This document shows, one piece after another, positions 8,542 to 26,494 of a DNA stretch of 26,494 nucleotides. This DNA comes from a virus (lineage: Duplodnaviria; Heunggongvirae; Uroviricota; Caudoviricetes). A program made the translations under genes and the position numbers. Position 1 is the first letter of the stretch. Every line of letters starts with the position of its first letter. The notes beneath the pieces are model-generated. The model saw only the letters and a list, made by a program, of their open reading frames with translations, did no database searches and was not told the origin of the DNA. The DNA is taken from IMG/VR virus record IMGVR_UViG_3300045988_034764; one strand, given 5' to 3'.

Positions 8542-8574
8542 CTTCTCTACTCCGTTCTCGTTGTCGATGGAGTA

Positions 8575-8603: not shown

Positions 8604-8624
8604 CTAGTCATAGCAGAAAATAGA

Positions 8625-8657
8625 TAAAAAAAATCCCGGCTGGGTCAGGGCCGGGAT
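8625..8657 (-). terminator. Intrinsic terminator after the lysis cassette
   Basis: 8-bp stem ATCCCGGC/GCCGGGAT with 9-nt loop, followed on the minus strand by T8. Confidence 0.6.
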
Positions 8658-8721
8658 AAAACTGGAGAGTAGAGGGATGGAACAGGAGGTGATTTAAGTA
8701 TCGTCGGATTAGTCTTAGGTG

Positions 8722-9761: not shown

Positions 9762-9820
9762 GATGAATCCTCCAGGTGCGTATTAAGTATGCAGTAACTG
9801 GAGGATACCACGGGTAGGAA

Positions 9821-10551: not shown

Positions 10552-10769
10552 CACTTCTCCTGTTTACCAAGTCGCTTAGGTGAGCAGATAGCTCGTACCT
10601 CTGAATCGTTGGGCTTGTCACCCTGAAACAGGAAGTGCGCGTTCTCTGCGGCGCGTGCCGCTGACTGGCACGCCTCCATCGAGTAAAACGTTTCTGCTGC
10701 CGCTAGTTGCATCTGACCCGCGGACAGCACCCAGATAAATAAGATGCTGGTCATCTCTTTAGCCCGCAT
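10551..10769 (-). CDS. Small secreted protein (signal-peptide-like N-terminus)
   Basis: 72 aa; positive n-region, hydrophobic core, AAA-E cleavage-like site; alternative start at 10754. Confidence 0.45.
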   Translation of the reverse strand: MRAKEMTSILFIWVLSAGQMQLAAAETFYSMEACQSAARAAENAHFLFQGDKPNDSEVRAICSPKRLGKQEK

Positions 10770-11374: not shown

Positions 11375-11483
11375 CAACCCCCATTGTTATCGCTTTAGTG
11401 TCGCCGTCGCACACAGAAGTGCTACCCATTATTTCGTAAGCATCTACCAGTTCGCCTAAGGTCCAGCTACCGTACCAACCCAT
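11364..11483 (-). CDS. Hypothetical small protein (39 aa), not in ORF track
   Basis: ATG with AGGAGA SD about 30 nt downstream of a promoter copy; coordinates approximate. Confidence 0.3.
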   Translation of the reverse strand: MGWYGSWTLGELVDAYEIMGSTSVCDGDTKAITMGVDDE

Positions 11484-11509
11484 CTTCTGTCTCTCCTCTC
11501 GTTTGTGTA

Positions 11510-11545
11510 AATGAATAGTAGCCTATTCTATTTTAGTGTGCAAGT
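11510..11545 (-). promoter_or_regulatory. sigma70-like promoter with operator motif (copy A)
   Basis: On minus strand TTGCAC, 17-bp spacer, TACTAT; core TGAATAGTAGCCTATTCTA; positions approximate (+/- 3 nt). Confidence 0.4.
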
Positions 11546-11550
11546 AAATT

Positions 11551-11724
11551 TTATCGGTGTGTTATAGAGTCGATGAACGCCAGTAACTCGCGCTCCGCTT
11601 CTGCTTCTCTTTCCTCAAGCGACCAGGTAGCGGATTCCTCTGTTGCCGTCGCTAAATCTGTTTTTACATCAATCATCGTATCTATTAACGCGATTAGTCG
11701 TTCAGCCTGTTCTTTAGTAATCAT
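11551..11724 (-). CDS. Hypothetical acidic small protein (57 aa), not in ORF track
   Basis: ATG with GGGAGA SD; preferred over the overlapping low-complexity plus-strand ORF 11573-11785 because all neighbours are minus-strand. Confidence 0.35.
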   Translation of the reverse strand: MITKEQAERLIALIDTMIDVKTDLATATEESATWSLEEREAEAERELLAFIDSITHR

Positions 11725-11848
11725 TGTTGCATCTCCCGCAATAGTCGCTTCGATTGTTGCGTTTGGTGAAATAGAACAAAAATGAGAAAAATGATACGCT
11801 GCTGTGTAGCAGCGTAAGTCACTCAGTAAAATCCCAAACTATTGAACA

Positions 11849-12052
11849 TCACACTTCCGGCGGCCCAGGTAACGGCATCCAGTGGGAAAACACTTCCTGC
11901 TCTAATTCCCCGTAGTCAGCACGGAAATCACACCAAGTTACCCCATCCCACTCGTACACATTGTTCTGGACCACACCACCCATACTACTGACGACCAAAA
12001 CTGGTTGGCCCGGCTCCGGCATCCGCTCACTACACTTAATCCACTCTCCCAT
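11849..12052 (-). CDS. DUF551-like phage protein
   Basis: 67 aa; pattern WIKCSERMPEPGQPVLV...HWMPLPGPP typical of DUF551 proteins. Confidence 0.6.
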   Translation of the reverse strand: MGEWIKCSERMPEPGQPVLVVSSMGGVVQNNVYEWDGVTWCDFRADYGELEQEVFSHWMPLPGPPEV

Positions 12053-12055
12053 ATC

Positions 12056-12199
12056 TCACCTCTGATTCGCGATAAACAACACACCAGCTTTCCACGCCCG
12101 CCACGCGAGACGCGTCTTAACGTTCAGGTACTCTTTCTTCGAACCCTTGTTAACCGGCAGACCCTCAACGACGGCCCATCGTTCGAATGCTTCTCTCAT
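12056..12199 (-). CDS. Hypothetical small protein (47 aa), not in ORF track
   Basis: Exactly fills the gap between two flanking genes in frame with an ATG; weak SD. Confidence 0.3.
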   Translation of the reverse strand: MREAFERWAVVEGLPVNKGSKKEYLNVKTRLAWRAWKAGVLFIANQR

Positions 12200-12202
12200 A
12201 CC

Positions 12203-12451
12203 TTAGTCCTCATCGTCGTTCTCTCTTCCTAGATATGAAAGAGATGTAATCGCGGCAGCGGTAAATCCATCACAATCAATCATACGTTTAAGTTTCTCCG
12301 CATCCTCCTGCGATTTTATTCGGAAACATAGTTGTGCTACCCCCGCCACCGAAGACCTGCCACCCTCTGATACGGCGTTATAGTGATAAACATATATATA
12401 TATTTCATACCAACCCCCAAAACGCGCGCACCACATAGACGTCACTGACAA
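12203..12451 (-). CDS. Hypothetical protein (82 aa; start uncertain)
   Basis: Track ORF with TTG start; contains a (TA)n microsatellite translated as YEIYIYVY; coding status uncertain. Confidence 0.3.
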   Translation of the reverse strand: MSVTSMWCARFGGWYEIYIYVYHYNAVSEGGRSSVAGVAQLCFRIKSQEDAEKLKRMIDCDGFTAAAITSLSYLGRENDDED

Positions 12452-12462
12452 TTAAAATAAAC

Positions 12463-12756
12463 TTATCCACGGCAACCTCCCTCAGAGTCGTCGGCACTGG
12501 CATCATGATTCGATGCCGTTCGCATAAACAGCTTACCTTTGCGCTGTAACAAATCCATCGTCACCGCACCAGCCCCTGACTTATTAGGGCGGCGCATTAG
12601 ACTAAAATTCCACACCCTGGCCTTTGTTACATCCCGGGCGTTACACACCCACAAAGCACCATTTTCTCTCAGGTCCAGCAAATCAGAAATGTTTAAATTA
12701 TTTACCGGGATAAACCCACTAATGAACTGGCGTTCGCATTGCGGTAATTCTTCCAT
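12463..12756 (-). CDS. Hypothetical protein (97 aa)
   Basis: ATG one codon after the track GTG start; first sizeable gene downstream of promoter copy B. Confidence 0.5.
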   Translation of the reverse strand: MEELPQCERQFISGFIPVNNLNISDLLDLRENGALWVCNARDVTKARVWNFSLMRRPNKSGAGAVTMDLLQRKGKLFMRTASNHDASADDSEGGCRG

Positions 12757-12972
12757 CACTTCGCCCCTTTGAATTTAAAATTGTTGCCGATGAGTTTTAT
12801 CCCGTCCTCCCGGACCCATAAATCGAAACACCATTCTGGATGCGCGAGATAGCATAACCCAGGAACTTAATTCGAAACTCGTTTAATTATTGCGTAATGT
12901 CCGCCGCGTTTCGTTTTCACCAACTGACCCTTCTTAAACATAACCCTCACTCCTCTGTCTCGTTTCGATAAG

Positions 12973-13006
12973 TGAATAGTATCCTATTATATTGGGGTGT
13001 GCAAGA
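12973..13006 (-). promoter_or_regulatory. sigma70-like promoter with operator motif (copy B)
   Basis: On minus strand TTGCAC (12999-13004), 17-bp spacer, TACTAT (12976-12981); core TGAATAGTATCCTATTATA at 12973-12991. Confidence 0.45.
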
Positions 13007-13362
13007 GAATAGTTACGTTGCCGTTGTGATTCTTTCGTTTCTTAAAAGAGTACGCAACGCAGTGGGTGGGCGTTAGCCCACCCCAGCGGAGTGAAGTACT
13101 CTCTACCTTGTTTACGGCAATTATAGAAACTTTTAATTATCAGTGACTTGGGTATTTAGGCGGGATTAACAATAGACTTTGGCCCTTCCGAAAGCGCCAG
13201 CGGAACTACACTCAAGTGCCTAATGGCACGCGTTGCGTTCCCTGCCGCTCCGCGGTCGCTTGCGATATCTCACAAGCTCAGTGAAGCTTAGCATATTTTT
13301 AAGTAAAAGTCAATACCAGTAGCATCTTTTGTATCTTAGTAACTTTGTGTGGCGTTTTGGTT

Positions 13363-13391
13363 GCTTTTACATTCCCGCTATCCTATACTCA
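13363..13391 (+). promoter_or_regulatory. sigma70-like promoter for the plus-strand replication module
   Basis: TTGCTT, 17-bp spacer, TATACT, about 30 nt upstream of the ATG at 13421. Confidence 0.4.
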
Positions 13392-13420
13392 GCTTCACCA
13401 AACAAACAGGAGATATAAAA

Positions 13421-13603
13421 ATGCAGCATTACATGACCCAGAATGAAGTAGCAGAACGTATCGGGGTGACCCGTCAGACAATTAATAACTGGTTGCGCAG
13501 TGGTAAATTCCCGGATTGCTGTATTAAGGTTATGGGCCGCCGTTTACCGGGTACATTTGACCGTAATAAAGTTGAAGCGTGGATTAAGGAGAACGTGAAA
13601 TGA
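13421..13603 (+). CDS. AlpA/excisionase-type helix-turn-helix DNA-binding protein
   Basis: Start moved to ATG with AGGAG SD (track start lies inside the promoter); MTQNEVAERIGVTRQTINNWLRSGKFP matches the AlpA-family HTH pattern. Confidence 0.7.
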   Translation: MQHYMTQNEVAERIGVTRQTINNWLRSGKFPDCCIKVMGRRLPGTFDRNKVEAWIKENVK

Positions 13604-13890
13604 AAGGTGTAATATTCCATGATAAAGAGAACGACAATTCTTATATGGTCTATTTAGTGCAAGGCAAGTACGCGTTGTGTTTTAACGTTTCTTGTAAGCT
13701 GGACTCTTATTCGCCGTTTTGCGTTACAGAAGAATTGCAGTTGATTAGTCTCCGAAGACTCAGCACAATGTCGGCCTCCATTGATGTCTCTGACCACTTA
13801 TCGTACGTTTATCAGTATTTCGGCGATGAGATTGTCGTAGATTATTATCGTAAGTACGCACATTTGATGGAATGCCTGGCCAATAGATAA
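13600..13890 (+). CDS. Hypothetical protein (96 aa)
   Basis: ATGA overlap with upstream gene; no recognisable motif. Confidence 0.55.
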   Translation: MKGVIFHDKENDNSYMVYLVQGKYALCFNVSCKLDSYSPFCVTEELQLISLRRLSTMSASIDVSDHLSYVYQYFGDEIVVDYYRKYAHLMECLANR

Positions 13891-13948
13891 AAGAAAGCCC
13901 CGACGCGTGAACGCCGAGGCCAAATTACTTGCTGAAGGAATATACAAT

Positions 13949-16216
13949 ATGTCCGATGTGATTTTATCCTACTCGTGGTCCCGTCGCAACGCGCGGGCGG
14001 AGAAAAAGGATATAAACGTCAGAACCACACACACGGCAACACTGGACGACCTGAAAGGGTTAATCCAGCCGCTCGATGCTGTTCGCGGCGGGATTAACCC
14101 TAAGACCGCGCCTGGCTATATCACGGCCGCGTGCGACTCGACGCACAGCACCGTAAAAGACCCGGAAACAGGCGACTTTAAGCAAGCGCGTAAAGGCTTC
14201 TTCTACCGCTGCGACGCGTCTGTAAGCAAATCGTCGCTTGCCTATCTGGACTTTGACAGTGCAACGCCAGAGGAGTATCAGGAAGCTGTGCGCCTGGTTA
14301 AGCGCAGCCGCCGGGCAATGTGCATTTACACCACGGCATCACATACCGACGAGTCACCGCGCTTTCGCGTCGTCATGCCTCTGGGCCGCCCGGTCGAAGG
14401 TGGTGACATCATCCGTGTTCGTCATGGATTGCTGGAACACTTCTTCAAGGGCATGGGTGCTGACCGCAGTGGGTTCACCCTGTCGCAGCCGATGTACCTG
14501 CCACCGGTTGGCTCTACGGTTATCTGGTCTCGCCGCAACGACCTGATTGACCCGTACGAGTTGCTTGAAGGTATCCCCGCCGTCGACGTTAGCAGCGCAT
14601 CCGACTACCAGATACCGGAAGAACTGCGCACTGCGTTTACTGATGCGTTCGAGGCACTGGCCTTCGAGTATGGCGGTGTCATGACGCCACGCGGCCTGAA
14701 GATGCCCGCTACACCAGAACACGCCGAAAACTACAGCGACCCTACCCCGCGCCCGGACGACTTCCTGCTGTGCTTCCCGCGAGAGGGGTACGAAGCGCCA
14801 AACGTGACCATGATTCACGACACCGACATTACGGCGACCGAAGGCATGTCGCCGAAAGAGGTGTGGAAATACGCTTGCGATGCGACCGGGATGCCATTCA
14901 GTGAAGTCGCAGAGGCCATCGGTTGGGGTGCGCGAGAATCTGTTTCATGCAGCCTGGACGACCTGGAAGACGATGAGGACTCAGAGGAGGACGAGTTACC
15001 GGAACCGGTAAAGGCGGATTTCGTCGTTGAAGGGTACATGCCGTCAGATTGTATCTGGGATATTGTCGGGGAATCTGGCACGTACAAATCGTTCTATACG
15101 CTGGGGATGATGTACCTGAGCGCCGCCGGATACCGGTTTGCGGGGGCGGATACTCAGCGCTGCCACCATTTCTATATCGACGGTGAGGGCGGCGCAGCCA
15201 CACGTACGCGTATTGATGCACTAGCGGCTAAATATGGTGAGGAAGGTAAAGATTATGTACATGTCATCGACATGGGCGAAGTCGGAAAACTGAAAAGCCT
15301 TATTAAGTTGATGCGTGAAACTGCTGGTGACGAACCCATCGGTATGGTCGCGTTTGATACCCTTAACCAGACGCTGGCGCTGACGATTGATAAGTTCGAC
15401 GAGAACAGTTCATCAACGGCAATCGGCATGGGTAAAGTTATCGCCATCCTGAAAGAAGTACGTGACGCGACTAAAGCTGCAGTGGGCGTCGTCCACCACA
15501 CACCGAAGGGTGGAAAGAAAGCCCGCGGCAGTGGGGCGCTGTATGCGGGCGTCGACGTGGAACTGACAATTGAACGCGCTACCGACCGTCAGATAAACGT
15601 ATACCACTCTAAATTCAAACACGGCCCACAACAAAAAACTGTCGGCATGGTGCTTGAGTCGGTACAGTTCCGTGAAGCGCCACCCCCGAAAGAGTACCGC
15701 GCGGTTGAGTTCCTGGGTAGCACAGAGGAATACGGCACAATCGTTAACCTGGACCTGCCTGAGCCGCACAAGGCGCTTGTTCTGATGCCGTGGGGTTTCG
15801 AGCCGTTCAAAACTGACGAGGAGAAAGAGCGCGAAGAAGGTCTGACAAAGGAAGGTAAAGAAAACGTACGTAAAACCGTAGAGAACGCTGTCAACAGTTC
15901 AGAGGCCACGATACTCGCAGCGTTCGAACTGGCGGAAGGAACCTACAACGGCAACGAAGGCATCACGGTAGCCGCAGCGAATAAGCTGGCACAGTCTGAC
16001 CCCAACGCAAAGGCGTTTAACTCCAAAGAAGCCATAGAACGCGGGAAGATTAAGAAAATGGTTGAGGCCGGGTATCTTGTTCCGGGGACTGACGAAAACA
16101 ATCAGATAATACCAGGCCGTTACAGACTGAATACCCGAATAACTGATAACAAGATTCCTAAGACAATATACGAACCGAATGAAATGCTGACAGTGACAGA
16201 GGAAGATTTGGAATAG
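13949..16216 (+). CDS. DNA primase / helicase (primase-polymerase-like N-terminus fused to RecA-like ATPase)
   Basis: Start moved to ATG with GAAGGA SD (track start is GTG at 13907); N-terminal LDFD AEP-like motif; Walker A GESGTYKS, Walker B VAFDTL. Confidence 0.7.
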   Translation: MSDVILSYSWSRRNARAEKKDINVRTTHTATLDDLKGLIQPLDAVRGGINPKTAPGYITAACDSTHSTVKDPETGDFKQARKGFFYRCDASVSKSSLAYLDFDSATPEEYQEAVRLVKRSRRAMCIYTTASHTDESPRFRVVMPLGRPVEGGDIIRVRHGLLEHFFKGMGADRSGFTLSQPMYLPPVGSTVIWSRRNDLIDPYELLEGIPAVDVSSASDYQIPEELRTAFTDAFEALAFEYGGVMTPRGLKMPATPEHAENYSDPTPRPDDFLLCFPREGYEAPNVTMIHDTDITATEGMSPKEVWKYACDATGMPFSEVAEAIGWGARESVSCSLDDLEDDEDSEEDELPEPVKADFVVEGYMPSDCIWDIVGESGTYKSFYTLGMMYLSAAGYRFAGADTQRCHHFYIDGEGGAATRTRIDALAAKYGEEGKDYVHVIDMGEVGKLKSLIKLMRETAGDEPIGMVAFDTLNQTLALTIDKFDENSSSTAIGMGKVIAILKEVRDATKAAVGVVHHTPKGGKKARGSGALYAGVDVELTIERATDRQINVYHSKFKHGPQQKTVGMVLESVQFREAPPPKEYRAVEFLGSTEEYGTIVNLDLPEPHKALVLMPWGFEPFKTDEEKEREEGLTKEGKENVRKTVENAVNSSEATILAAFELAEGTYNGNEGITVAAANKLAQSDPNAKAFNSKEAIERGKIKKMVEAGYLVPGTDENNQIIPGRYRLNTRITDNKIPKTIYEPNEMLTVTEEDLE

Positions 16217-16250
16217 GTAAAAAAAAAAAGGGGGGGGGGCGTTAAGCCCC
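16217..16250 (-). terminator. Homopolymer-containing terminator between convergent genes
   Basis: A11 (16219-16229) then G10 (16230-16239); on the minus strand GGGGC-loop-GCCCC followed by C-run and T11, directly after the XRE gene stop. Confidence 0.4.
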
Positions 16251-16457
16251 TTCACCGAACGCCAGCCACTTGGCGTCTACTTCCAGCACTTCCGCCAGTT
16301 TAAACAGCGTCGCCGGGCGGACGTCCTGAGTTACGCCGAGCGCAAGCTGGTTAATCGCACCCTGGGAAACGCCGGCCAGAACAGCCAGACGGCGCTGTGA
16401 GATGCCGAGTTCTTTACGGCGTTGTTCTACACGGATGCCTAGTTCAGATGGTTGCAT
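16242..16457 (-). CDS. XRE-family (Cro/CI-type) helix-turn-helix transcriptional regulator
   Basis: 71 aa; ELGISQRRLAVLAGVSQGAINQLALG is a classic XRE HTH; AAGGAG SD; antisense to surrounding genes. Confidence 0.75.
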   Translation of the reverse strand: MQPSELGIRVEQRRKELGISQRRLAVLAGVSQGAINQLALGVTQDVRPATLFKLAEVLEVDAKWLAFGEGA

Positions 16458-16484
16458 GTCAATTACTCCTTAGTTAGTTGATAT

Positions 16485-16552
16485 GTGAATAGTACCATAT
16501 TAATTATTTTAGAAAAGCCCATTGACATCGTGAATAGTTAGCTATTATAGTT
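16485..16552. promoter_or_regulatory. Divergent promoter/operator switch region (copies D and E of the motif)
   Basis: Plus strand: TTGACA (16522-16527) + 17-18 bp + TTATAG/TATAGT with TGAATAGTTAGCTATTATA in the spacer; minus strand: TACTAT -10 (16489-16494) facing the XRE gene. Confidence 0.5.
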
Positions 16553-16582
16553 AGCCCATACCAAACGAGAGGAGAGAAACAA

Positions 16583-17083
16583 ATGTTAGAGAAATTCTTA
16601 GCATTACTGGAACGTTTCGTAGTTGCTCATGAACTGATTGCTGCGAACAGCGCGAAACAAGTTGTTCAGGTTTCCGCGCCGCTGGAAGTAGAGACGGTAG
16701 CGTATGCCAAAGAAGCGGTAGCCGAGTGCGCTGAAGAAGAAACAAAAGAAATCCCGGTTGAAGGTGAAGACATCGTCGACACTAAACCGGCAGAAGAAGA
16801 GAAGCCGAAACGCAAGCCGCGGAAAGCTAAAGTAGAGGAACCAACACCGGAGCCGGAAGAAGAGAAGGAAGAAGTTGATTACCAGTCTCTGCGTGACCAG
16901 ATTCAGGCTATCGACGATGCGATTAACGAAGGTCCGAGCGATGCCGCGTGCGATGACTCCGATGAACTGCTGGAAGAGTTCACCGGTAAGAAAATGAAGA
17001 TTGCCGCGATTAAAGACGAAGACCTGGCTGAATACCTGAAACGCCTGACGGCAATCAAGAACAAGTATTTCGAAGAAGAATAA
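16583..17083 (+). CDS. Highly acidic protein (hypothetical; possible DNA mimic)
   Basis: 166 aa very rich in E/D with one basic patch KPKRKPRKAK; first gene after a strong promoter; GAGAGGAGAG SD. Confidence 0.55.
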   Translation: MLEKFLALLERFVVAHELIAANSAKQVVQVSAPLEVETVAYAKEAVAECAEEETKEIPVEGEDIVDTKPAEEEKPKRKPRKAKVEEPTPEPEEEKEEVDYQSLRDQIQAIDDAINEGPSDAACDDSDELLEEFTGKKMKIAAIKDEDLAEYLKRLTAIKNKYFEEE

Positions 17084-17088
17084 CTATC

Positions 17089-17113
17089 TTGCGGCCTTCG
17101 GGCCGCTTTAACT
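17089..17113 (+). terminator. Hairpin (GCGGCC-TTCG-GGCCGC) with weak T tract
   Basis: 6-bp GC stem with UUCG-type loop followed by TTTAAC, 6 nt after the acidic protein stop. Confidence 0.35.
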
Positions 17114-17126
17114 GAGGGTCGGAATT

Positions 17127-17462
17127 ATGAAATACGAAAATTTAACAGACATAGAAATTAATGCACGCGTCAGCCGCGCGTTATACGGCGATGTCTCACG
17201 AGGACATCAGATGGCATTAGCTTCTGGAGTAGTAGATTATTGTAATCGGATAGAGGACGCGTGGCCTGTTATCACCGGTAACAATATCTCGATTGTAGCT
17301 ACAGATTTAGAATGGATTGCTTTACCGGATAATGCGGTTATTGACGGTATTACCGGAGACGCAACCAGTATGATTTACGTAGACGACTCATGTGTTATCG
17401 GTACAAATCCTCTACGCGCAGCAATGATTGTCTTTCTTAAAATGCAGGAGGCCAAGAAATGA
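17127..17462 (+). CDS. Hypothetical protein (111 aa)
   Basis: Track ORF; ATGA overlap with the next gene. Confidence 0.55.
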   Translation: MKYENLTDIEINARVSRALYGDVSRGHQMALASGVVDYCNRIEDAWPVITGNNISIVATDLEWIALPDNAVIDGITGDATSMIYVDDSCVIGTNPLRAAMIVFLKMQEAKK

Positions 17463-17731
17463 TTTACCAACTCTACCGAGCCGTAGACAGGCGGGATAAC
17501 ACCGAGGCGCTATGGCTGTTGCGTGCACCATCCGGCGCGCACCAGATGGGAGAGATGGCGTACTTAGGCAAAGTGCCGCACCCTAAAGATATAGGCCGTC
17601 ACGTGTCACAGATTAAGCGCACGACTTTCGCCAAACCTGACTTTTATGTCTTCGAGTCGATGTATGGGTGGGCTATGCACTGCGAACATAAGACTCGGCA
17701 TTTAATTGACCAGTGGGAGAACAGGGTATGA
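17459..17731 (+). CDS. Hypothetical protein (90 aa)
   Basis: Track ORF; ATGA overlaps on both sides. Confidence 0.55.
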   Translation: MIYQLYRAVDRRDNTEALWLLRAPSGAHQMGEMAYLGKVPHPKDIGRHVSQIKRTTFAKPDFYVFESMYGWAMHCEHKTRHLIDQWENRV

Positions 17732-18969
17732 TTTTAAAGGAACGCGGCGGCAATAATGATGTGCACGCCTTACTGTCACCGTCGGGTGCTAAAAAGTGGC
17801 TGACGTGCAGTGCATCGCTAGCCTGTGAAAAAGATATTCCTAACACGTCCGGTAAAGCAGCCGTATTAGGCACCGCCATGCACACCATAGCCGAGATGCA
17901 CCTTAACCAGTACATCAAAGGCACGGCGCTGCCGTTAGAGCGTGAAGTCGGCGCTTACGTGCTGGATGAGGGTAAAGGTCAGATTAAGGCGTTAATCAGC
18001 CCGATGAAGGGCGCTGTACTGATTACGGCTGACATGATTGAGCAGGTGCGCAAGTACACCGACTATTGCAAACCGATTATCGACGTAGCGACTTACGCCA
18101 AACTTGAGATGCGCGTCAATCTTACTGAGGTATTGCATCCTGGCTATGAAGGCGTTGAGACGTTCGGAACCGCTGACCTCGTTGCCGTGCAGGAACTGGC
18201 GAACACAGACGAGCACATGCTCATTATCGGCGACCTGAAAACAGGACGGCATCGTGTTGAAGCGAAAGAAAACAAACAGCTTATGCTTTACGCTCTCGGT
18301 GTCTATCGCCGACTCAAGAGACGCTATAACATCACCGTGGTTCGTCTGGTCATCTTCCAGCCGTATGCTGGCGGTGCGTCGGAGTGGGACATCTCGGTTG
18401 AAGGTCTGGAACTGTTCGCTAAGTTCGCACAGAAACGTGCACTTTTAGCGCTAGACGCGTATTTCCGCGGCAAGAAGAACCTGAAAGCGTCGGACTTCAG
18501 GCCGTCGGTCGATGGTTGCCAGTGGTGCCGGTTCTCTGAACAATGCGCCGCGCGTACAAAGACGGTTAATTCTGTACTGGCGGAAGAACTGGAGGACGAC
18601 TTTGCGCTGGAACTGACACCGGAGCAACTTGTAGCCGAATATGAGAAGTTGCCGTTGTTGCGCCAGCACATCGATAAGGTTGAGAAAGCGATGGCAGCTG
18701 CGTTACATTCCGGTAAGAAAGTGCCAGGGTACAAGTTGGTTGAAGGTCGTCCTGGTAACCGTGCGTGGAAAGATACCGATGCGGTATTCGAGAAGTACGG
18801 TACTATGCTGCAAAAGGTAGTTCTCATGACGCCGACCGAAGCGGTTAAAGTTGTGCCGGAAGAAGAACTGAAAGACTTCATTACCCGTAAGCCCGGAGCA
18901 CCGTGCGTCGCAACGGCAGACGACAAACGTCCTGAGTGGAATCAGGCAACCGAGGAGGATTTAGAATGA
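17728..18969 (+). CDS. Cas4-like / DUF2800-type PD-(D/E)XK exonuclease
   Basis: Start moved to ATG overlapping the upstream stop; motifs DLVAV...IGDLKTG and C-terminal CQWCRFSEQC cysteine cluster. Confidence 0.7.
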   Translation: MILKERGGNNDVHALLSPSGAKKWLTCSASLACEKDIPNTSGKAAVLGTAMHTIAEMHLNQYIKGTALPLEREVGAYVLDEGKGQIKALISPMKGAVLITADMIEQVRKYTDYCKPIIDVATYAKLEMRVNLTEVLHPGYEGVETFGTADLVAVQELANTDEHMLIIGDLKTGRHRVEAKENKQLMLYALGVYRRLKRRYNITVVRLVIFQPYAGGASEWDISVEGLELFAKFAQKRALLALDAYFRGKKNLKASDFRPSVDGCQWCRFSEQCAARTKTVNSVLAEELEDDFALELTPEQLVAEYEKLPLLRQHIDKVEKAMAAALHSGKKVPGYKLVEGRPGNRAWKDTDAVFEKYGTMLQKVVLMTPTEAVKVVPEEELKDFITRKPGAPCVATADDKRPEWNQATEEDLE

Positions 18970-19124
18970 TTCGTAAAATCGTGTATTGGGCTTTATTATC
19001 ACCATTGGTAGTTATATCTGCTTTTACTTCATCTATTGCTTGGATAGATTGTAAGTTTAGAGGTAGTCAACCCATAGAACGCTATGTTCATTGGTGTGAG
19101 AAAGTTTCTAAAATTAAGCGTTGA
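18966..19124 (+). CDS. Small membrane protein (52 aa)
   Basis: ATGA overlap with upstream stop; one hydrophobic helix. Confidence 0.4.
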   Translation: MIRKIVYWALLSPLVVISAFTSSIAWIDCKFRGSQPIERYVHWCEKVSKIKR

Positions 19125-19150
19125 CACCTGAATAGTTAGCTATTATATTT
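19121..19150 (+). promoter_or_regulatory. sigma70-like promoter with operator motif (copy F) upstream of the SSB-like gene
   Basis: TTGACA (19121-19126), 17-bp spacer, TATATT (19144-19149); spacer holds TGAATAGTTAGCTATTATA, identical to 16531-16549. Confidence 0.5.
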
Positions 19151-19202
19151 CTAATCACTGGCCGGGCAGTTCCCGGAGTAAACTTAAAAGCGAGAAATCA
19201 AG

Positions 19203-19829
19203 ATGGGTATTAAACTGAATCTGCGTAAAGTAAACACTGCATGGGTTAACGTATTCGAACGCGAAAAAGACCGTGAAAACGATGATGGTTCAATCACTAA
19301 GGGGCAGTACAGCGCAACTATCATCCTGCCGTCTGACCATGCTCAAATCGATGCACTCTATGACACTGTTTACGCCGTAGTTGAAGAAGCGTTAGGTGCA
19401 GCCGCCGCCGATAAGTGGATGAAGTCCAACTACGGCGAAGGTAAGCACATGGATAAATGTGCGATTAAGGACATTGCCGAGCGTGACAATCCGTTTGAAG
19501 ACTTCCCGGAAGGCTTCTACTTCAAAGCGAAAGCACAGAAACAGCCTCTGATTGTAACCTCTAAAAAAGGCGAGACTCAGGTAGAGCAGGATTTCAATGT
19601 AGACGGCGAACAGATTGAAGGTGAACAGGTTTACAGCGGCTGCGTCGCTAACGTAAGCGTTGAAATCTGGTTCAGCCAGAAATACAAAGTTCTCGGTGTT
19701 AACCTGCTGGCAATTAAATACGTCGGAGAAGGTAAAGCGTTCGGTGGTTCTAAAGTCGCTGCGAGTGTCGATGACCTGGAAGACGACGAAGAAGATGGAG
19801 CACCGCGCCGCGAACGTCGCCGCCGCTAA
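19203..19829 (+). CDS. DUF2815-like single-stranded DNA-binding protein
   Basis: 208 aa with acidic DDLEDDEEDG tail typical of SSBs; sits between the Cas4-like nuclease and the polymerase. Confidence 0.55.
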   Translation: MGIKLNLRKVNTAWVNVFEREKDRENDDGSITKGQYSATIILPSDHAQIDALYDTVYAVVEEALGAAAADKWMKSNYGEGKHMDKCAIKDIAERDNPFEDFPEGFYFKAKAQKQPLIVTSKKGETQVEQDFNVDGEQIEGEQVYSGCVANVSVEIWFSQKYKVLGVNLLAIKYVGEGKAFGGSKVAASVDDLEDDEEDGAPRRERRRR

Positions 19830-19848
19830 TATCTGAATCAATTTAACT

Positions 19849-19872
19849 AAGGCCCTTCATTGGGCCTTTTTA
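19849..19872 (+). terminator. Intrinsic terminator or attenuator before the polymerase gene
   Basis: AAGGCCC-TTCATT-GGGCCTT hairpin followed by TTTTAC. Confidence 0.5.
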
Positions 19873-19890
19873 CTAAGGGTCGAAAATAAT

Positions 19891-22089
19891 ATGCCTAATT
19901 TATTGTATCTGGATACTGAAACATTCTCTGAAGCTGACCTAAAGAAAGTAGGGTCATACGCGTACGCGGAACACGCAACAACTGAGATTATAATATGCAC
20001 ATACGCCATTGATGACGGGCCTGTAGAAGTATGGGACTGCACTTCCGAACCAGTAATGCCGATAAACCTCCGCGTTGCGCTCCGTAATGTTATGCGCGGA
20101 CGTATGAGAATCGTAGGCCATAACTTTTTAATGTTCGACAGACTAGTTATGAAGCACTGTTGGGGGGTGGATATCAAACCAAGAAATACCATCGACACTA
20201 TGATTCGGGCGTTTCGTCACGCGTTGCCGGGGTCACTTGATGCGCTGTGTGAAGTGCTTGGCGTGTCCGCCGACAATGCGAAAGACAAACGAGGTAAAGC
20301 GCTGATTCAGCGTTTTTCTAAACCGACACCGAAGAACTACAAAATTCGCCGCTACACCGCAGAAACGCACCCAGACGAGTGGGCGTTATTCATCAAGTAC
20401 GCCGTGAGCGACATTACTGCGATGCGTGAAGTCTTTCATAAGCTGCCGCGTTGGGGTAACTCGGAGTTTGAGGACCGTGTACTTGAACTTGACCAATTAA
20501 TCAACGACCGTGGGTTTAAGGTTGACGTAGCGCTGGCAGAAGCCGCGATTGAAGCCGTGGAGAAGCACAAGGCACAGTTACAGGAAGAAGCCCAACTAAA
20601 ATACGGCGGCTCGCTTACTGGTAAGGACTTTCTGCCGATTCTGCGTGAACTCGCACCCGCGCACCGCATCCACAATGCGCAGAAGTCGACGCTGAATGAC
20701 CTGCTGGCGGATGATGATTTACCGGACGACGCCCGCACGATTATCGAAATGCGCCTCGGTGCCGCATCCACGGCATCAACGAAATATAACCCGCTGCTGT
20801 TAGGCCGCTCGTCTGACGACCGCCGTCGTGGTTGTTTACAGTACGGCGGGGCAAAACGGACTCTGCGATGGGCGGGTAAAGGCTTCCAGCCGCAGAACCT
20901 CGCGCGCGGGTACTATCACGATGATGAACTGGATAAAGGCATTTCTGCGCTACTTAAGGGCCGTGCTCATCGCCGTTTCGACGTAGCCAAGCTAACGGCA
21001 TCGACGGTTCGTAGCTGCATCATACCGGAAGCTGGGCATAAATTTGTCGTCGCCGATTACTCTAACGTTGAGGGTCGTGGGCTTGCGTGGCTGGCTGGTG
21101 AAGAAACCGCGCTTGATACGTTCCGCGCCGGACTGGATATTTATTGCGTAACCGCGGGTAAGATGTTTGGCATGGATCCCGACGATATTAAGAAAAACTT
21201 CAAGGAAATCAGACAGATAGGTAAGGCCTGCGAACTGGGCCTCGGCTATGAGGGTGGCGTCGGAGCGTTCGTTACGTTCGCTAAAAACTTAGGCCTCGAC
21301 CTTATTGAGATGGCTAAAACAATGGATGGTACATTCCCTGACCACATATGGGCCGCTACCGCACGGGGTTATGAGTGGGCGCGTATCCAGGAAGCAAAGC
21401 GACCGCCGCATCCTGGTGAAAAGGACGACCGACCGTCGTATATTCTGGATAAGAAAGTGTGGCGTACCTGCGACGCTATCAAGCGCATGTGGCGCGAGTC
21501 GCACCCGGAAACAGTAGCGTTCTGGCGCGACCTTAAAGACGGAATTTTAGCCGCTGTAAGAAATCCTGGTCGTGAATTTTGGGCGGGGGCGCATCTGCGC
21601 AAGAATGGCGAGCGCGCTATCCGAATCTGGAGAACAGTAGAAACCGATTCATCCGGTAGGAAGGTTCCTGGTTGGTGGTTGTGTATGGAGTTGCCGTCAG
21701 GCCGCATCCTTTCGTACCCTGGAATCGGCGTTAGCGTGACAAAAGAAACAGACGAAGACGGACGGGTAAACACGAATGTGCGAATCAAGTATCAGGGCGA
21801 AAACCAGTTAACCCGCCAATGGACTACCTTATACACCCACGGCGGTAAAGCATGTGAAAACATTGTCCAGGCGCTGTGCCGTGATTTACTGGCGTATGCG
21901 ATGCTTAACGTTGAGCGTGGCGGATATCCTATCGTGCTTTCGGTACACGATGAACTGGTATGCGAAACTCCAGATACCCCTGAGTACACGGTGGCCGAAC
22001 TGGAGAAATTAATGTGCGCGTTGCCAGAGTGGGCAGAAGGCTTCCCTCTTGTAGCGGAAGGGCAGGAGTTAAAACGCTATGCTAAGTAA
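19891..22089 (+). CDS. DNA polymerase, family A (Pol I-like) with 3'-5' exonuclease domain
   Basis: 732 aa; N-terminal Exo I motif YLDTETFS; polymerase-type motifs in the C-terminal half. Confidence 0.85.
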   Translation: MPNLLYLDTETFSEADLKKVGSYAYAEHATTEIIICTYAIDDGPVEVWDCTSEPVMPINLRVALRNVMRGRMRIVGHNFLMFDRLVMKHCWGVDIKPRNTIDTMIRAFRHALPGSLDALCEVLGVSADNAKDKRGKALIQRFSKPTPKNYKIRRYTAETHPDEWALFIKYAVSDITAMREVFHKLPRWGNSEFEDRVLELDQLINDRGFKVDVALAEAAIEAVEKHKAQLQEEAQLKYGGSLTGKDFLPILRELAPAHRIHNAQKSTLNDLLADDDLPDDARTIIEMRLGAASTASTKYNPLLLGRSSDDRRRGCLQYGGAKRTLRWAGKGFQPQNLARGYYHDDELDKGISALLKGRAHRRFDVAKLTASTVRSCIIPEAGHKFVVADYSNVEGRGLAWLAGEETALDTFRAGLDIYCVTAGKMFGMDPDDIKKNFKEIRQIGKACELGLGYEGGVGAFVTFAKNLGLDLIEMAKTMDGTFPDHIWAATARGYEWARIQEAKRPPHPGEKDDRPSYILDKKVWRTCDAIKRMWRESHPETVAFWRDLKDGILAAVRNPGREFWAGAHLRKNGERAIRIWRTVETDSSGRKVPGWWLCMELPSGRILSYPGIGVSVTKETDEDGRVNTNVRIKYQGENQLTRQWTTLYTHGGKACENIVQALCRDLLAYAMLNVERGGYPIVLSVHDELVCETPDTPEYTVAELEKLMCALPEWAEGFPLVAEGQELKRYAK

Positions 22090-22210
22090 ACTGATTATCG
22101 CGGTACTGGCGGGATTTGCCGCCGGTGTGTACTGTCACGAGGGCCAATACGGCATGATGGTCGCCGTATTGGGTATGTTCATCGCAATTTATCTGTGGGT
22201 GCTGGAATGA
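22079..22210 (+). CDS. Small membrane peptide (43 aa), not in ORF track
   Basis: ATG overlapping the polymerase stop; fully hydrophobic; AGGAG about 10 nt upstream. Confidence 0.3.
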   Translation: MLSKLIIAVLAGFAAGVYCHEGQYGMMVAVLGMFIAIYLWVLE

Positions 22211-22296
22211 AAATTTACTGGTTCTACGAAGAAGACTGCCGAATCTGTCCGCGCTGCGGTATTGAGCATACAAAACGTGAGGGGTGCGTATTATGA
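22207..22296 (+). CDS. Small CxxC...CxxC zinc-ribbon-like peptide (29 aa), not in ORF track
   Basis: ATGA overlap at both ends; CRICPRCG motif. Confidence 0.25.
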   Translation: MKIYWFYEEDCRICPRCGIEHTKREGCVL

Positions 22297-22445
22297 TGAT
22301 GTTTGTATTTGGGGCAGTCGTAACCATGCTCGCACTGTTGCTCGGTGCGGGAATAGCCGCGATGTTCTGTTATGGCCTGTTCTTTCAGTTTGTCGGTGTT
22401 GCCGTTCTAGGAGGGGCTTTCATTACCTGGATTCTGCGGTCATGA
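22293..22445 (+). CDS. Small membrane protein (50 aa), not in ORF track
   Basis: GAGGGG SD; two hydrophobic helices; stop overlaps the VRR-NUC start; the same-region track frame is Arg/Cys-rich junk. Confidence 0.35.
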   Translation: MMMFVFGAVVTMLALLLGAGIAAMFCYGLFFQFVGVAVLGGAFITWILRS

Positions 22446-22738
22446 CTAAAGAGGGTCGCGTGCAGAAATACGCGAAAGAGAGGTTCGAGGCCCTGGGGGG
22501 CCTCGTTCGCAAGCTCTCCTACGAAGGACGTTCCGGTGCTCCCGACCTGCTGGTAATTCTCCCCGACGGCATCATCTGGTTCGTCGAGGTTAAGAAAGAC
22601 GAAAACACGAAGCCCGACCCGCACCAGCTACGCGAGCACGAGCGGATGCGTAAACGCGGCGCGAATGTTTTTGTCGTTGGTTCGTTTAAACAGGTTGACA
22701 CCCTAATAGCGGACTATTATAGTAAACACATACCCTAA
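22442..22738 (+). CDS. VRR-NUC domain nuclease
   Basis: Start moved to internal ATG (98 aa); PD-(D/E)XK-type motif PDLLVI...FVEVK typical of VRR-NUC. Confidence 0.7.
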   Translation: MTKEGRVQKYAKERFEALGGLVRKLSYEGRSGAPDLLVILPDGIIWFVEVKKDENTKPDPHQLREHERMRKRGANVFVVGSFKQVDTLIADYYSKHIP

Positions 22739-22757
22739 CAATATAAGGAATTATGAA

Positions 22758-23012
22758 ATGACTATCGAACTTCAACTGTCAGTAAACACCATGATTCTCT
22801 GTTCAATCGATTCATCTGTTCGCATCGGTAAATACACAGGGGCGTCAGTTAATTACTCATGGTCTATGAAGGTTTCGGAAGTAAACCGTATCCTGGGTTT
22901 CGGGTCAGTTGGCCGCAAAGTGCTTGCGGAAGACGTCGCTAAAGGGCTGTCTGTAGACTTCACAACGGCTGGAGAACTTATTAAGCAAGTTCAAGCCGAA
23001 TTATCTAACTAA
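22758..23012 (+). CDS. Hypothetical protein (84 aa)
   Basis: Track ORF with AAGGA SD. Confidence 0.55.
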   Translation: MTIELQLSVNTMILCSIDSSVRIGKYTGASVNYSWSMKVSEVNRILGFGSVGRKVLAEDVAKGLSVDFTTAGELIKQVQAELSN

Positions 23013-23051
23013 TACAGGCCCTTCGGGGCCTTAACTATAAGGAATTGAGAA

Positions 23052-23243
23052 ATGAAACACGAATATGACCGCAAACCAGCACGTGACATCGTACCGGGTG
23101 ACATGATTTTCAACGTTAAGACACGTCGTCCTGTCGCCGTTGATACGGTGTACGTCGAGTCGAACGGTAAACTGGTTATCGAAGATGTAACCGGTAACGT
23201 TACGGCGTTCGGGCGTAAAGAGTTAGTTCTGGTGGCGAAATGA
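23052..23243 (+). CDS. Hypothetical protein (63 aa)
   Basis: Track ORF with AAGGA SD; ATGA overlap with the next gene. Confidence 0.55.
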   Translation: MKHEYDRKPARDIVPGDMIFNVKTRRPVAVDTVYVESNGKLVIEDVTGNVTAFGRKELVLVAK

Positions 23244-23923
23244 TTGTCTGGTCCTTGTTTGACGGTTCGGGCCTTATGGCCCAACCGTGGGCGGAAGCAG
23301 GCCATACTTGCTATTGTTTCAACTACGACGGCGCTAACCACGGCGACTACGCACGATTGGGTGCAAAAGTTGTACATGAAAATATCCATTATATAAACGC
23401 GTGGATTGATAATAGATTCGACTTCGGCGTTGCGCCGGATATTATTTTTGCGTTCCCTCCGTGCACAGATTTAGCCGTTAGCGGTGCGGCGCATTTTGAA
23501 ACGAAGCGGAAGAATAACCCAACTTTTCAGGTAGAGGCCGTAATTACATGCAAAGTGGCGGCGCGTCTGGCTAAAAAATACAACGTACCTTATATGATTG
23601 AAAACCCTGTTAGCGTTCTTTCGTCTCTATGGCGTAAGCCAGACTACGTGTTCAATCCGTACGAATACGGTGGATATTTACCGGAAGGCGACGCACATCC
23701 AATGTTCCCGGATGTTATTCCAGCGCGAGATGCGTATGTTAAAAAGACGTGCCTGTGGACGGGCAATGGGTTTGTTATGCCAGACGTTGCCGTGGTTAGC
23801 GCGGATAGTGGAGATAACCCTGGTTGGGCTAAACTCGGCGGAAAGAGCGCCAGAACAAAAACAATCCGCAGCCTTACTCCGCGCGGTTTCGCAAAAGCAG
23901 TTTACGAGGCTAATCATGTCTAA
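23240..23923 (+). CDS. Minimal DNA (cytosine-5)-methyltransferase-like protein
   Basis: 227 aa; C5-MTase motif I-like LFDGSG, motif IV-like FPPCTDLAVSG (PC catalytic dipeptide), motif VI-like IENP; no room for a target-recognition domain. Confidence 0.5.
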   Translation: MIVWSLFDGSGLMAQPWAEAGHTCYCFNYDGANHGDYARLGAKVVHENIHYINAWIDNRFDFGVAPDIIFAFPPCTDLAVSGAAHFETKRKNNPTFQVEAVITCKVAARLAKKYNVPYMIENPVSVLSSLWRKPDYVFNPYEYGGYLPEGDAHPMFPDVIPARDAYVKKTCLWTGNGFVMPDVAVVSADSGDNPGWAKLGGKSARTKTIRSLTPRGFAKAVYEANHV

Positions 23924-25340
23924 GTTTCAAAGGCGCGAATACCAGAAGCTCATGACCTCGTTCATGTTGCGGCACAATCGCTGCAACATATGGGCGAGCA
24001 TGGGCGCCGGGAAGACTGGCAGCGTACTGTGGGCATTAAACCGACTGTTCCGCAACGGCCAACTTAATGATGACGACCGCGTGTTAATACTCGCCCCGCT
24101 GCGCGTTGCGTCAGGTACATGGCCCGCGGAACAAACTAAGTGGGGTTTCCCGTGTCTGCGCGTCATAGACGCGACCGGTTCAGAAAAGCGCCGCATCGCT
24201 GCGCTGGAGTCAGACGCTAATGTAATTTGTATTAACTATGAGGTTATAGAGTGGCTTATCGACTATTACGGAGTAGATGACTGGCCCTTTACTGTGATAG
24301 TTAACGATGAAAGCACGAAGCTTAAGTCATTCCGTAGCCGTTCAGGCGGGAGCAAGAGGGCAAAGGCGCTTAGTAAAGTAGCATTTAGAAATGTTAAGAG
24401 GCTGATAAACCTTACGGGAACACCGTCACCGAACGGCCTCAAGGACTTGTGGGGTCAGAACTGGTTTATAGACGCAGGCGAGCGCCTCGGTTCTTCATAC
24501 ACGGCGTTCACCGACCGCTGGTTTAACTCGGTGCAAAAAGGCAAATCGGCTATGGCGCGGGAGTACCACGCACGCCCGGGAGCAGATAATGAAATTCACC
24601 AGAAGATGAAGGACATCAGCCTGACTATTGACGCCGCCGAGTGGTTTGGTTGCGAAGCTCCGATTATTGTGCCAGTTGAAATCGACCTGCCGAAGAAAGC
24701 GCGTCAGGCGTACATAGATATGGAGGAAAAGTTATTCGCGGAACTGGAGAGCGGAGAAGTTGAAGCGGCTAACGCGGCAGCGAAGACGTCGAAGTGCCTG
24801 CAGATTGCTTCTGGTGCCGTGTACGTGTCAGGACCGGATGGCGAAGCAACGAAAGACTGGGAGAAAGTGCACGATACGAAACTGGATGCGCTTGAGTCCA
24901 TTGTTGAGGAGTTACAGGGCGCGCCGTTGCTGGTGGCCTATCAGTTCAAGCACGAACTGGAGCGCATCCTTAAGCGATTCCCGCAAGCACAGGCGTTTGC
25001 TAAAGGCGCTAAGGGTAATAAGCAGATGGAAGCGTGGAACCGTGGTGAAATCGAAATCCTATGCGTACATCCTGCGTCAGCCGGTCATGGTTTGAATTTA
25101 CAGGACGGCGGGCATCATCTGGCGTTTATTTCGCAGGGCTGGAACCTTGAGCACTATTTGCAGGTCGTCGAACGTATAGGCCCGGTCCGCCAGAAACAGG
25201 CAGGCCACGAACGACCGGTGTTCCTCTACCACATCGTCGCTAAAGACACGCTGGACGAGGTTGTTGCCGCGCGTACAGACGAGAAGAAATCGGTGCAGGA
25301 AGAGTTGCTTAATTACATGAAGAGACGAGGTAAGAAATGA
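23916..25340 (+). CDS. SNF2-family DNA-dependent ATPase / helicase
   Basis: Start moved to ATG overlapping the upstream stop (474 aa); Walker A GAGKTG, DESTK box, LTGTPSPNGL motif, C-terminal helicase region. Confidence 0.8.
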   Translation: MSKFQRREYQKLMTSFMLRHNRCNIWASMGAGKTGSVLWALNRLFRNGQLNDDDRVLILAPLRVASGTWPAEQTKWGFPCLRVIDATGSEKRRIAALESDANVICINYEVIEWLIDYYGVDDWPFTVIVNDESTKLKSFRSRSGGSKRAKALSKVAFRNVKRLINLTGTPSPNGLKDLWGQNWFIDAGERLGSSYTAFTDRWFNSVQKGKSAMAREYHARPGADNEIHQKMKDISLTIDAAEWFGCEAPIIVPVEIDLPKKARQAYIDMEEKLFAELESGEVEAANAAAKTSKCLQIASGAVYVSGPDGEATKDWEKVHDTKLDALESIVEELQGAPLLVAYQFKHELERILKRFPQAQAFAKGAKGNKQMEAWNRGEIEILCVHPASAGHGLNLQDGGHHLAFISQGWNLEHYLQVVERIGPVRQKQAGHERPVFLYHIVAKDTLDEVVAARTDEKKSVQEELLNYMKRRGKK

Positions 25341-25516
25341 AATTTAATACAGCATTAATAGTTTTGTGGCTATTTTGCCGAGTGGGGCCTGGGTCGGTAT
25401 TATTATTGTGCGGTATCTTGGACGGAAAAACCTTTGATGCGGGTGTGATGGTGGGCGCGGGAATGATGCTGTTGGCTGCCGGTGTCGCAGAATTGTATAA
25501 GGATTTTAAGAAATGA
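25337..25516 (+). CDS. Small membrane protein (59 aa), not in ORF track
   Basis: ATGA overlap with the SNF2 stop; two hydrophobic helices. Confidence 0.4.
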   Translation: MKFNTALIVLWLFCRVGPGSVLLLCGILDGKTFDAGVMVGAGMMLLAAGVAELYKDFKK

Positions 25517-25650
25517 ACATCATGGCCCCGATTCCGGCATTGCAAAAACGTATCAAGGAACTCGAAGAAGAGGTTCTACGACTACGGCAACAGAGAGACG
25601 CCGCTAATGCGCAACTGGCGTTTATACTGGAGAAGTTATCAGGAGAGTAG
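25513..25650 (+). CDS. Small coiled-coil protein (45 aa), not in ORF track
   Basis: ATGA overlap with upstream ORF; heptad-like KRIKELEEEVLRLRQQ; followed by a terminator. Confidence 0.35.
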   Translation: MNIMAPIPALQKRIKELEEEVLRLRQQRDAANAQLAFILEKLSGE

Positions 25651-25654
25651 AGAA

Positions 25655-25680
25655 AAGGCCCCGTTTGGGGCCTTAGTTTT
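25655..25680. terminator. Intrinsic terminator between convergent genes
   Basis: AAGGCCCC-GTTT-GGGGCCTT hairpin followed by AGTTTT. Confidence 0.5.
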
Positions 25681-26494
25681 AGCTAGTTACATTACCAGCA
25701 ACCTTCCACACACCAGAGCCAACATGGACCCATTTATAAGGTCGCCCAGCAACTGGTGTCAGAAGCTCCCATCGCGCACCATTGCCGAATTGGGTGACTG
25801 AAGAATCAGGGGGAGCATCCCCGTATACATGCGCAATGCCGTTAATTTTGTAACCAGCAGCTGTCCATGTGTACGTACCCCAGATTGTATAATTACCTCC
25901 CCAGTCTGAGTAGTTAAACTGCGAAACACCTGCTGCCCACAGCACACGGGAGGCTGCCGGTGCAACGGTATTAATCAGGTTAATGGTAGTGTCATTAACT
26001 TGCCAGTATTTGCTAGTAGGTGAACCAGCAAACTCCGGCAGGTAGCTACCAGTAATGGTGACTGCACATTGAGTAAAGATGCAGGCAACACTTCCCGTAT
26101 CTGTGAGATTAACACTACGAAAGGCATTAATAGATAAGCGAGATTGATTACACTCAAAGAGGCTACCATGAATCTCTTCTGCCCCGCAGCCGTCCATAAC
26201 TACACTAGTGCACCCTAAGAACACATAAGCGGAACCAGTTACATAATCCGTTGCACAACCTTTAAGATTGGAATAAGTAATGTTAGTAAACTTATATGCC
26301 CACCGGGATACATTCCTGACATAAACGTTATTTAAGTTAAAAGTTGTGCCGCCGGTGTCTACAGAAATGCCATCTTGAACATCTTTAATGATAAGTGAAT
26401 CAAACACCTGAAGCCAGCTATCACTTGTTCGGTACCCTGTCATCACGTTTTCTATATACAGGTCTTCTAATCGAACCATATAGCTTATTGCACT
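25679..26494 (-). CDS. Tail fibre / tailspike protein, C-terminal part (gene continues beyond window end)
   Basis: Frame open to the window edge; G/T/S/N/Y/W-rich beta-helix-like composition typical of receptor-binding tail fibre C-termini. Confidence 0.5.
   Translation of the reverse strand, partial: SAISYMVRLEDLYIENVMTGYRTSDSWLQVFDSLIIKDVQDGISVDTGGTTFNLNNVYVRNVSRWAYKFTNITYSNLKGCATDYVTGSAYVFLGCTSVVMDGCGAEEIHGSLFECNQSRLSINAFRSVNLTDTGSVACIFTQCAVTITGSYLPEFAGSPTSKYWQVNDTTINLINTVAPAASRVLWAAGVSQFNYSDWGGNYTIWGTYTWTAAGYKINGIAHVYGDAPPDSSVTQFGNGARWELLTPVAGRPYKWVHVGSGVWKVAGNVTS

Follow-up and report, generated by a model that had tools for sequence, protein, structure and literature searches.

Background

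The closest experimentally described relative of the protein considered here is the Dcm protein of phage K42, a KarlJaspers-like phage of the Drexlerviridae whose genome is 95.4% identical to that of KarlJaspers (bioRxiv 10.1101/2023.08.16.553469). Mutants of this phage that escape the retron Ec86 map to its 711-bp dcm gene, the expressed enzyme is not toxic unless the retron is there as well, and LC-MS revealed high levels of 5mC on the msDNA with the wild-type enzyme and not with C82A/E128A/K175A/K176A, of which K175 and K176 had been assigned to substrate binding after superposition on DNMT3A (bioRxiv 10.1101/2023.08.16.553469). Expressed by itself in E. coli, the enzyme is active; its CCWGG specificity was assumed on the model of E. 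coli Dcm, the sole test being mutation of the msDNA stem, in which alteration of CCTGG abolished defence, and the dcm+ host MG1655 alone showed low msDNA 5mC (bioRxiv 10.1101/2023.08.16.553469). In our search of the literature for phage C5-methyltransferases that are non-specific or lack a target-recognition domain (TRD), and for methylation data from Kagunavirus, this retron study was the only relevant one found, and the literature searched yielded no solved structure or base-resolution methylome for the family.

Here we analyze an orthologue of this enzyme encoded in a 26,494-nucleotide stretch of DNA from a virus of the Caudoviricetes (IMG/VR record IMGVR_UViG_3300045988_034764), hereinafter the window. 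The 5mC measurements and retron experiments belong to the K42 enzyme, whereas the window protein is known from its sequence and a structural model. Drawing on these and on the analogy with K42, we consider it likely, with a probability of roughly 80%, that this member of the compact phage 'Dcm' family (PHROG 757) is an active DNA cytosine-C5 methyltransferase that depends on SAM and stands alone. The features discussed below are collected in Table 1.

Table 1. Coordinates of the methyltransferase gene, its sequence motifs and other features of the window
Feature	Position	Strand	Remarks
YhhQ/Vut_1-like membrane protein	1952..2416	+	PF02592, E 2.5e-9
DpdA/TGT-like protein	2413..3147	+	phrog_887 'queuine tRNA-ribosyltransferase', E 2.9e-84; no Pfam hit
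VRR-NUC-type nuclease	22442..22738	+	start codon approximate; ~500 nt upstream of methyltransferase
63-aa ORF	23052..23243	+	phrog_4879, function unknown; stop overlaps methyltransferase ATG (ATGA)
Predicted compact Dcm-type C5-cytosine DNA methyltransferase, CDS	23240..23923	+	227 aa; ATG start
Motif I, LFDGSG	23255..23272	+	residues 6-11; predicted SAM-binding glycine loop after strand beta1; G9, S10, G11 invariant in alignment A1
Motif IV, FPPCTDLAVSG	23453..23485	+	residues 72-82; predicted catalytic nucleophile Cys75 at 23462-23464
Motif VI, IENP	23597..23608	+	residues 120-123, with Glu121; E121 and P123 invariant, N122 nearly so
Lys168-Lys169 before strand beta7 (KKTCLW)	23741..23746	+	in the place of motif VIII; K168 nearly invariant
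Short variable loop in TRD position	23765..23836	+	residues 176-199; lower confidence; most variable segment of alignment A1
Basic C-terminal block GGKSARTKTIRSLTPRGFAKAV	23837..23902	+	residues 200-221; one of the family's most conserved parts
SNF2-family helicase	23916..25340	+	474 aa; PF00176, E 1.2e-11; phrog_62, E 2e-166

Family membership and conservation of the catalytic residues

The protein matches phrog_757, "DNA methyltransferase", over residues 1-226 (E 2.1e-87) and is 61% identical over its full length to the "Dcm-like C5 cytosine methyltransferase" of KarlJaspers (Bas06; 236 aa, 711 bp; E 1e-107). Homologues were detected by tblastn in 1,529 phage records, mostly of Escherichia, Klebsiella and Salmonella phages from several families, and the family as a whole forms 1,294 clusters at 50% identity (E <= 1e-3) and, at 90% identity, more than 7,700. 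Its members are short throughout: for 150 representatives taken at 50% identity, the median length is 234 aa (quartiles 213-248). The small size thus characterizes the whole family and does not result from truncation of the window copy. A search for fusion partners in ten representatives of 292-453 aa, nine of them above 300 aa, found no Pfam domain except for one HNH. A protein 100% identical to that of the window is already present in public metagenome data, and "DNA cytosine methyltransferase" is the existing annotation of its orthologues in hz69, SZH-1, phiWAO78-1, RP180 and others. Thus, the C5-methyltransferase identity proposed in the earlier note on this DNA holds, whereas its presentation of the protein as an oddity does not: the protein is typical of a phage family that is huge and has been annotated before. 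The observation is real, though of an ordinary kind.

In sequence, the family resembles canonical C5-methyltransferases only marginally. The window protein does match the C5-methyltransferase profile PF00145, at 15.5 bits against a cut-off of 22 and over residues 3-102 only, and 2 of 77 family members reach E <= 0.01 with it; family profiles run against C5-methyltransferases of the PDB gave E-values of about 0.4-0.5, and searches of NCBIfam and directly of PDB sequences returned no match. Nevertheless, motifs I, IV and VI can be read straight from the translation, as had been claimed, and the FDGSG, PPCT and ENP elements occur at the expected spacing and align with those of DNMT3B, DNMT2 and E. 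coli Dcm, with C75 falling on the PC of both DNMT3B and E. coli Dcm; the sequence alignments with PF00145 and with DNMT3B/DNMT2 begin at motif I. The QxRxR signature of motif VIII is absent, and two lysines precede strand beta7 instead. In the diverse alignment A3, which contains 77 family members that are 36-63% identical to the query, C75, E121, P123, P140, Y166, W173 and P181 are invariant, and F72, P73, G82, N122, K168, R210, S211, P214 and G216 are nearly so; the window copy has every one of these residues. By way of the alignment with KarlJaspers Dcm, C82, E128, K175 and K176 of the K42 enzyme correspond to C75, E121, K168 and K169 here. The window protein thus shares with the K42/KarlJaspers enzymes the family and size class, the PPCT, ENP and KK residues and the DNPGWAK loop described below; it differs from KarlJaspers Dcm in lacking a 6-residue insert before motif IV.

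The small size, the score below the Pfam threshold, the PCT in place of PCQ and the KK in place of QxRxR might be taken as signs of an inactive relic, or of a purely DNA-binding protein devoid of catalysis, as the earlier note had also contemplated. However, both PCT and KK are present in the active K42 enzyme, which is inactivated by C82A/E128A/K175A/K176A, and the orthologue makes 5mC. Furthermore, Cys75 and Glu121 are invariant family-wide, and comparison with three orthologues gives a dN/dS of 0.10-0.15. This purifying selection, together with the invariant catalytic residues, argues against a relic, to which we accord hardly any probability.

Predicted fold and reduction of the recognition domain

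The AlphaFold2 model of the 227-aa protein (pLDDT 88.3, pTM 0.88) contains the C5-methyltransferase catalytic-domain fold. The structural match values are 12.8 for DNMT3B (183 residues aligned), 11.8 for CmoX (8yf3), 11.5 for a prophage methyltransferase (3g7u), 11.3 for DNMT3A, 10.6 for M.HhaI and 10.5 for M.HaeIII. A DNMT2-like enzyme whose true substrate is RNA (tRNA m5C) is a further reading. Against it, DNMT2 scores lower than the DNA enzymes in the structural comparison, the orthologue increases 5mC in the DNA portion of the msDNA, and the genomic context is one of DNA replication and recombination; an RNA substrate is, like the relic, among the least probable readings.

The match to CmoX bears on another suggestion of the earlier note, namely pyrimidine hypermodification, in which a group other than methyl, for instance carboxymethyl from Cx-SAM, would be transferred as the first step of cytosine hypermodification. 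CmoX (PDB 8yf3) is a C5-carboxymethyltransferase of 333 aa with a full TRD, which uses Cx-SAM by means of a key Arg and has cmoA and a ligase as linked partners (PMC12783734). The window protein is unlike it in having 227 aa and no such linkage: neither the scan of flanking genes in the window nor the annotation of SZH-1 revealed cmoA or an amide ligase gene. As the product of the orthologue is moreover 5mC, the suggestion is not borne out, and we regard it as very improbable, only marginally less so than the relic or the RNA enzyme.

The earlier observation that a target-recognition domain is lacking is well supported by the model. A separate variable TRD between motifs VIII and IX is absent from it; the catalytic core already takes up 183 of the 227 residues, and between beta7 (residues 170-175) and the C-terminal helix there are only about 40 residues (176-214). 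In M.HhaI the equivalent span consists of a hinge and a small domain with some 80 residues, and we therefore conclude that the TRD has been reduced to a loop, the variable segment 176-199 being its vestige. Model confidence is lowest at residues 191-200 (mean pLDDT 57), while the helices at 204-210 and 215-225 that follow have a pLDDT of 93-95. Across the family the loop at 186-199 occurs in two subtypes in alignment A1, DNPGWAK and GYSxQHxK, of which the former (residues 190-197) is common to the window protein and KarlJaspers Dcm. In comparison with M.HhaI, M.HaeIII and E. coli Dcm (PF00145), the window protein is about 100-250 residues shorter and has no TRD domain; canonical bacterial C5-methyltransferases carry PCQ and QxRxR, unlike the PCT and KK of the window protein, which scores under the Pfam gathering threshold. 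The best structural analogues are the catalytic domains of DNMT3A and DNMT3B, which combine a small TRD with oligomerisation, but they are only 14-18% identical to the window protein, and the DNMT3 domain is about 60 residues longer.

At variance with the earlier claim that the C-terminal motifs are missing, a conserved basic block with the consensus GGKSxRTKxIRSLTPRGFAxAV follows the loop. In alignment A1 its G200, T206, K207, I209 and R210-G216 are invariant, and its RSLTPRGFAxAV part resembles a fused motif IX/X. The C-terminal half did not align with canonical enzymes when the profiles of A1 and A3 were compared with PDB sequences or when hhalign was run against E. coli Dcm, the aligned part in those runs being only the half from motif I to motif IV (E about 0.4-0.8). 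Residues 200-221 probably represent a condensed motif IX/X together with a DNA contact. The DNA is probably read through the catalytic loop after Cys75, the loop of about 25 residues at 176-199 and the basic block at 200-216.

Target specificity

This reduced architecture bears directly on specificity, as an enzyme with so little of a recognition domain may be an active C5-methyltransferase and yet not a CCWGG 'Dcm'. It might instead recognize a motif that is shorter than CCWGG or unlike it, favor single-stranded or hairpin substrates, or have to dimerise like DNMT3A to bind DNA. In favor of this proposal, the vestigial TRD spans about 40 residues from beta7 to the C-terminal helix, part of them modelled with low confidence; the best structural matches, DNMT3A and DNMT3B, resemble it in motif IV (PCxDLS) and have TRDs of small size; and outside motif IV no resemblance to E. 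coli Dcm could be detected, as hhalign of the family profile against the E. coli K-12 protein covered 25 columns around that motif with a probability of 1%. The two subtypes of the loop at 186-199 point the same way. In the K42 study the methylated sites were left unmapped, and msDNA 5mC was not high in a dcm+ host by itself, which fits poorly with a simple duplicate of the host Dcm specificity. On the other side, the loss of defence upon mutation of CCTGG in the msDNA is consistent with CCWGG, even though such a stem mutation could also disturb contacts with the effector. RmC sites expose DNA to McrBC in K-12 hosts, and thus a very relaxed enzyme creating such sites would be expected to leave the phage DNA open to attack there. 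The frequency of CCWGG in the window, 52 sites against 68 expected, is a mild under-representation that is uninformative on specificity. On balance, we view a specificity other than CCWGG as a possible reading, with odds somewhat short of even.

More tentatively still, it is conceivable that at about 225 aa these proteins are the smallest natural DNA C5-methyltransferases, with TRD-free recognition by the loop of about 25 residues and the basic block, perhaps assisted by DNMT3-like dimerisation, and with a specificity that may be not CCWGG but a shorter motif, another cytosine, or DNA that is single-stranded or folded into hairpins, msDNA being an example. DNMT3 itself acts on CpG as a DNMT3L-assisted tetramer. 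If correct, this proposal would explain why the phage enzyme, but not the host Dcm, triggers retron Ec86, and it would offer a minimal scaffold for engineered methylation.

Gene neighborhood and the adjacent SNF2 helicase

The methyltransferase lies in a replication and recombination module that also encodes an AAA_25 primase/helicase, a DUF2800/PD-(D/E)XK nuclease, an Enc34-type ssDNA-binding protein and a family A DNA polymerase. KarlJaspers Dcm is likewise a single gene amid early/replication genes, without overlap with a helicase gene. The two neighbors named in the earlier note are both present. The VRR-NUC-type nuclease scores 19.6 bits with PF08774, which is under the cut-off, and matches the phrog_93 endonuclease (E 1.5e-33) and the phrog_5702 Holliday junction resolvase (E 1.6e-20), and its orthologues carry the VRR-NUC annotation. 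The SNF2 ATPase adjoins the methyltransferase directly: the methyltransferase stop and the helicase ATG share 8 nucleotides (ATGTCTAA), and the ATG at 23916 is also the start in annotated orthologues. Towards the right-hand end of the window there is a tailspike-like ORF on the minus strand (25679..26479), where the orthologous genomes have their tailspike gene (SZH-1 gp49).

Such an arrangement invites the idea of a functional pair analogous to DNMT5 or DDM1-MET1, in which the SNF2 translocase would feed DNA to a methyltransferase devoid of a TRD. The gene overlap and the recurrence of the pairing in a second set of loci are in its favor, as are two proteins of uncultured Caudovirales, BFVD A0A6J5SE15_1 (1,397 aa) and A0A6J5NPY6_2 (1,126 aa), which contain a structurally similar module (26-30% identity, TM 0.62-0.66), one of them annotated as 'Helicase/UvrB, N-terminal', and may be natural methyltransferase-helicase fusions. 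However, a helicase homologue occurs within 4 kb in only 8 of 80 related viral loci, and in a Pfam census of the 147 nearest large neighboring ORFs SNF2 was found 7 times, as against 12 for NinG and 5 for DnaB_C, the remainder including various genes of replication and recombination. Moreover, the helicase is unchanged in sister phages that have no methyltransferase, and the K42 enzyme works when expressed alone in E. coli. A functional pairing is accordingly unlikely, with a chance only slightly better than that of a carboxymethyl-type modification. As a general rule for the family we reject it, since there is no consistent partner and the coupling is lineage-specific.

A cassette that is present or absent among sister phages

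The region is about 89% identical at the nucleotide level to genomes of Kagunavirus in the Guernseyvirinae (BCH953P1, hz69, SZH-1 and others), a lineage distinct from the Drexlerviridae of KarlJaspers, and these genomes have an orthologous 227-aa gene in the same position. The orthologues of SZH-1 (QCF74_gp45), hz69, skrot and S55 share 83-92% nucleotide identity with the window gene and, as here, lie between the 63-aa ORF and the helicase, with no substantial difference. In Henuyfy11N, by contrast, the methyltransferase is absent while the 63-aa ORF and the helicase are kept and joined by an ATGA stop/ATG overlap (locus 1660-1670). The junctions are thus codon-precise: where the gene is present, ATGA (23240-23243) and ATGTCTAA (23916-23923) flank it, and where it is absent a single ATGA remains, so that start/stop overlaps are preserved in both states. 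BUCT789, phiSD1 and EF2-1, whose matches span only about 74% of the region and in which no methyltransferase is annotated, probably also have no cassette. On a wider scale, the 3.5-kb neighborhood occurs in 456 phage records, but the methyltransferase gene, at >= 80% nucleotide identity, in only 62; it is therefore an accessory cassette, with the gene overlaps kept on both sides.

Other modification signals in the window

The DpdA-like gene that had been noted in the same phage is confirmed by its phrog_887 match. With the gene for the YhhQ-like membrane protein it forms an overlapping two-gene cassette between a Mu-F-like head gene and the portal gene, a position at which SZH-1 has only a 168-nt ORF. 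A megablast search of positions 1900-3200 against 50,697 phage records gave no match other than the last 75 nucleotides, which belong to the portal gene, and for this reason the cassette appears to be rare among sequenced isolates. It may indicate a 7-deazaguanine modification of DNA; no genes for preQ0 synthesis were found among the window ORFs scanned.

A further signal concerns GATC, which is nearly absent from the window (1..26494), with 6 sites observed against about 91 expected by a maximal-order Markov estimate, whereas GCGC, CCGG, GGCC and CCWGG are near expectation. Neither the ORFs scanned nor the annotation of SZH-1 contained a Dam-type methylase. The depletion points to strong selection against restriction directed at GATC or against processes related to MutH/Dam.

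Proposed activity and biological implications

The foregoing comparisons suggest how the enzyme would act. By analogy with M.HhaI and DNMT3A, SAM would be bound by the FDGSG loop and the target cytosine flipped out of the helix, whereupon Cys75 of the PPC element in motif IV would attack C6 and Glu121 of the ENP element in motif VI would protonate N3. Lys168 and Lys169 are predicted to hold the base and the backbone where canonical enzymes use QxRxR, and after transfer of the methyl group to C5 the enzyme would be freed by beta-elimination. With start/stop codon overlaps at both ends, the gene is presumably expressed within the replication/recombination operon, and the methylation of replicating phage DNA would most likely blunt host restriction. 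Of the roles offered in the earlier note, that of an orphan anti-restriction methylase is thus the one that fares best: an active orphan methylase is strongly favored by the 5mC made by an orthologue of 61% identity, the retention of the catalytic residues and the low dN/dS, and a part in anti-restriction is probable.

The same activity may carry a liability, as 5mC placed by the orthologue on the msDNA of retron Ec86 (Eco1) leads to abortive infection. Such sensing may explain why the cassette is dispensable and comes and goes among sister phages, a pattern that would be expected of a gene that helps against restriction and is sensed by retron Ec86.

For annotation, a safe label is phage Dcm-type DNA cytosine-C5 methyltransferase, with a probable anti-restriction function and membership in a family that is a known trigger of retron Ec86/Eco1. 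The family at large, more than this locus, poses the question of how an enzyme of 227 aa with no recognition domain picks out its target cytosines, and of which cytosines these are. The presence and absence of the cassette is a plausible trace of a trade-off between escaping restriction and being sensed by the retron, and this trade-off matters for the prediction of host range in phage therapy cocktails.
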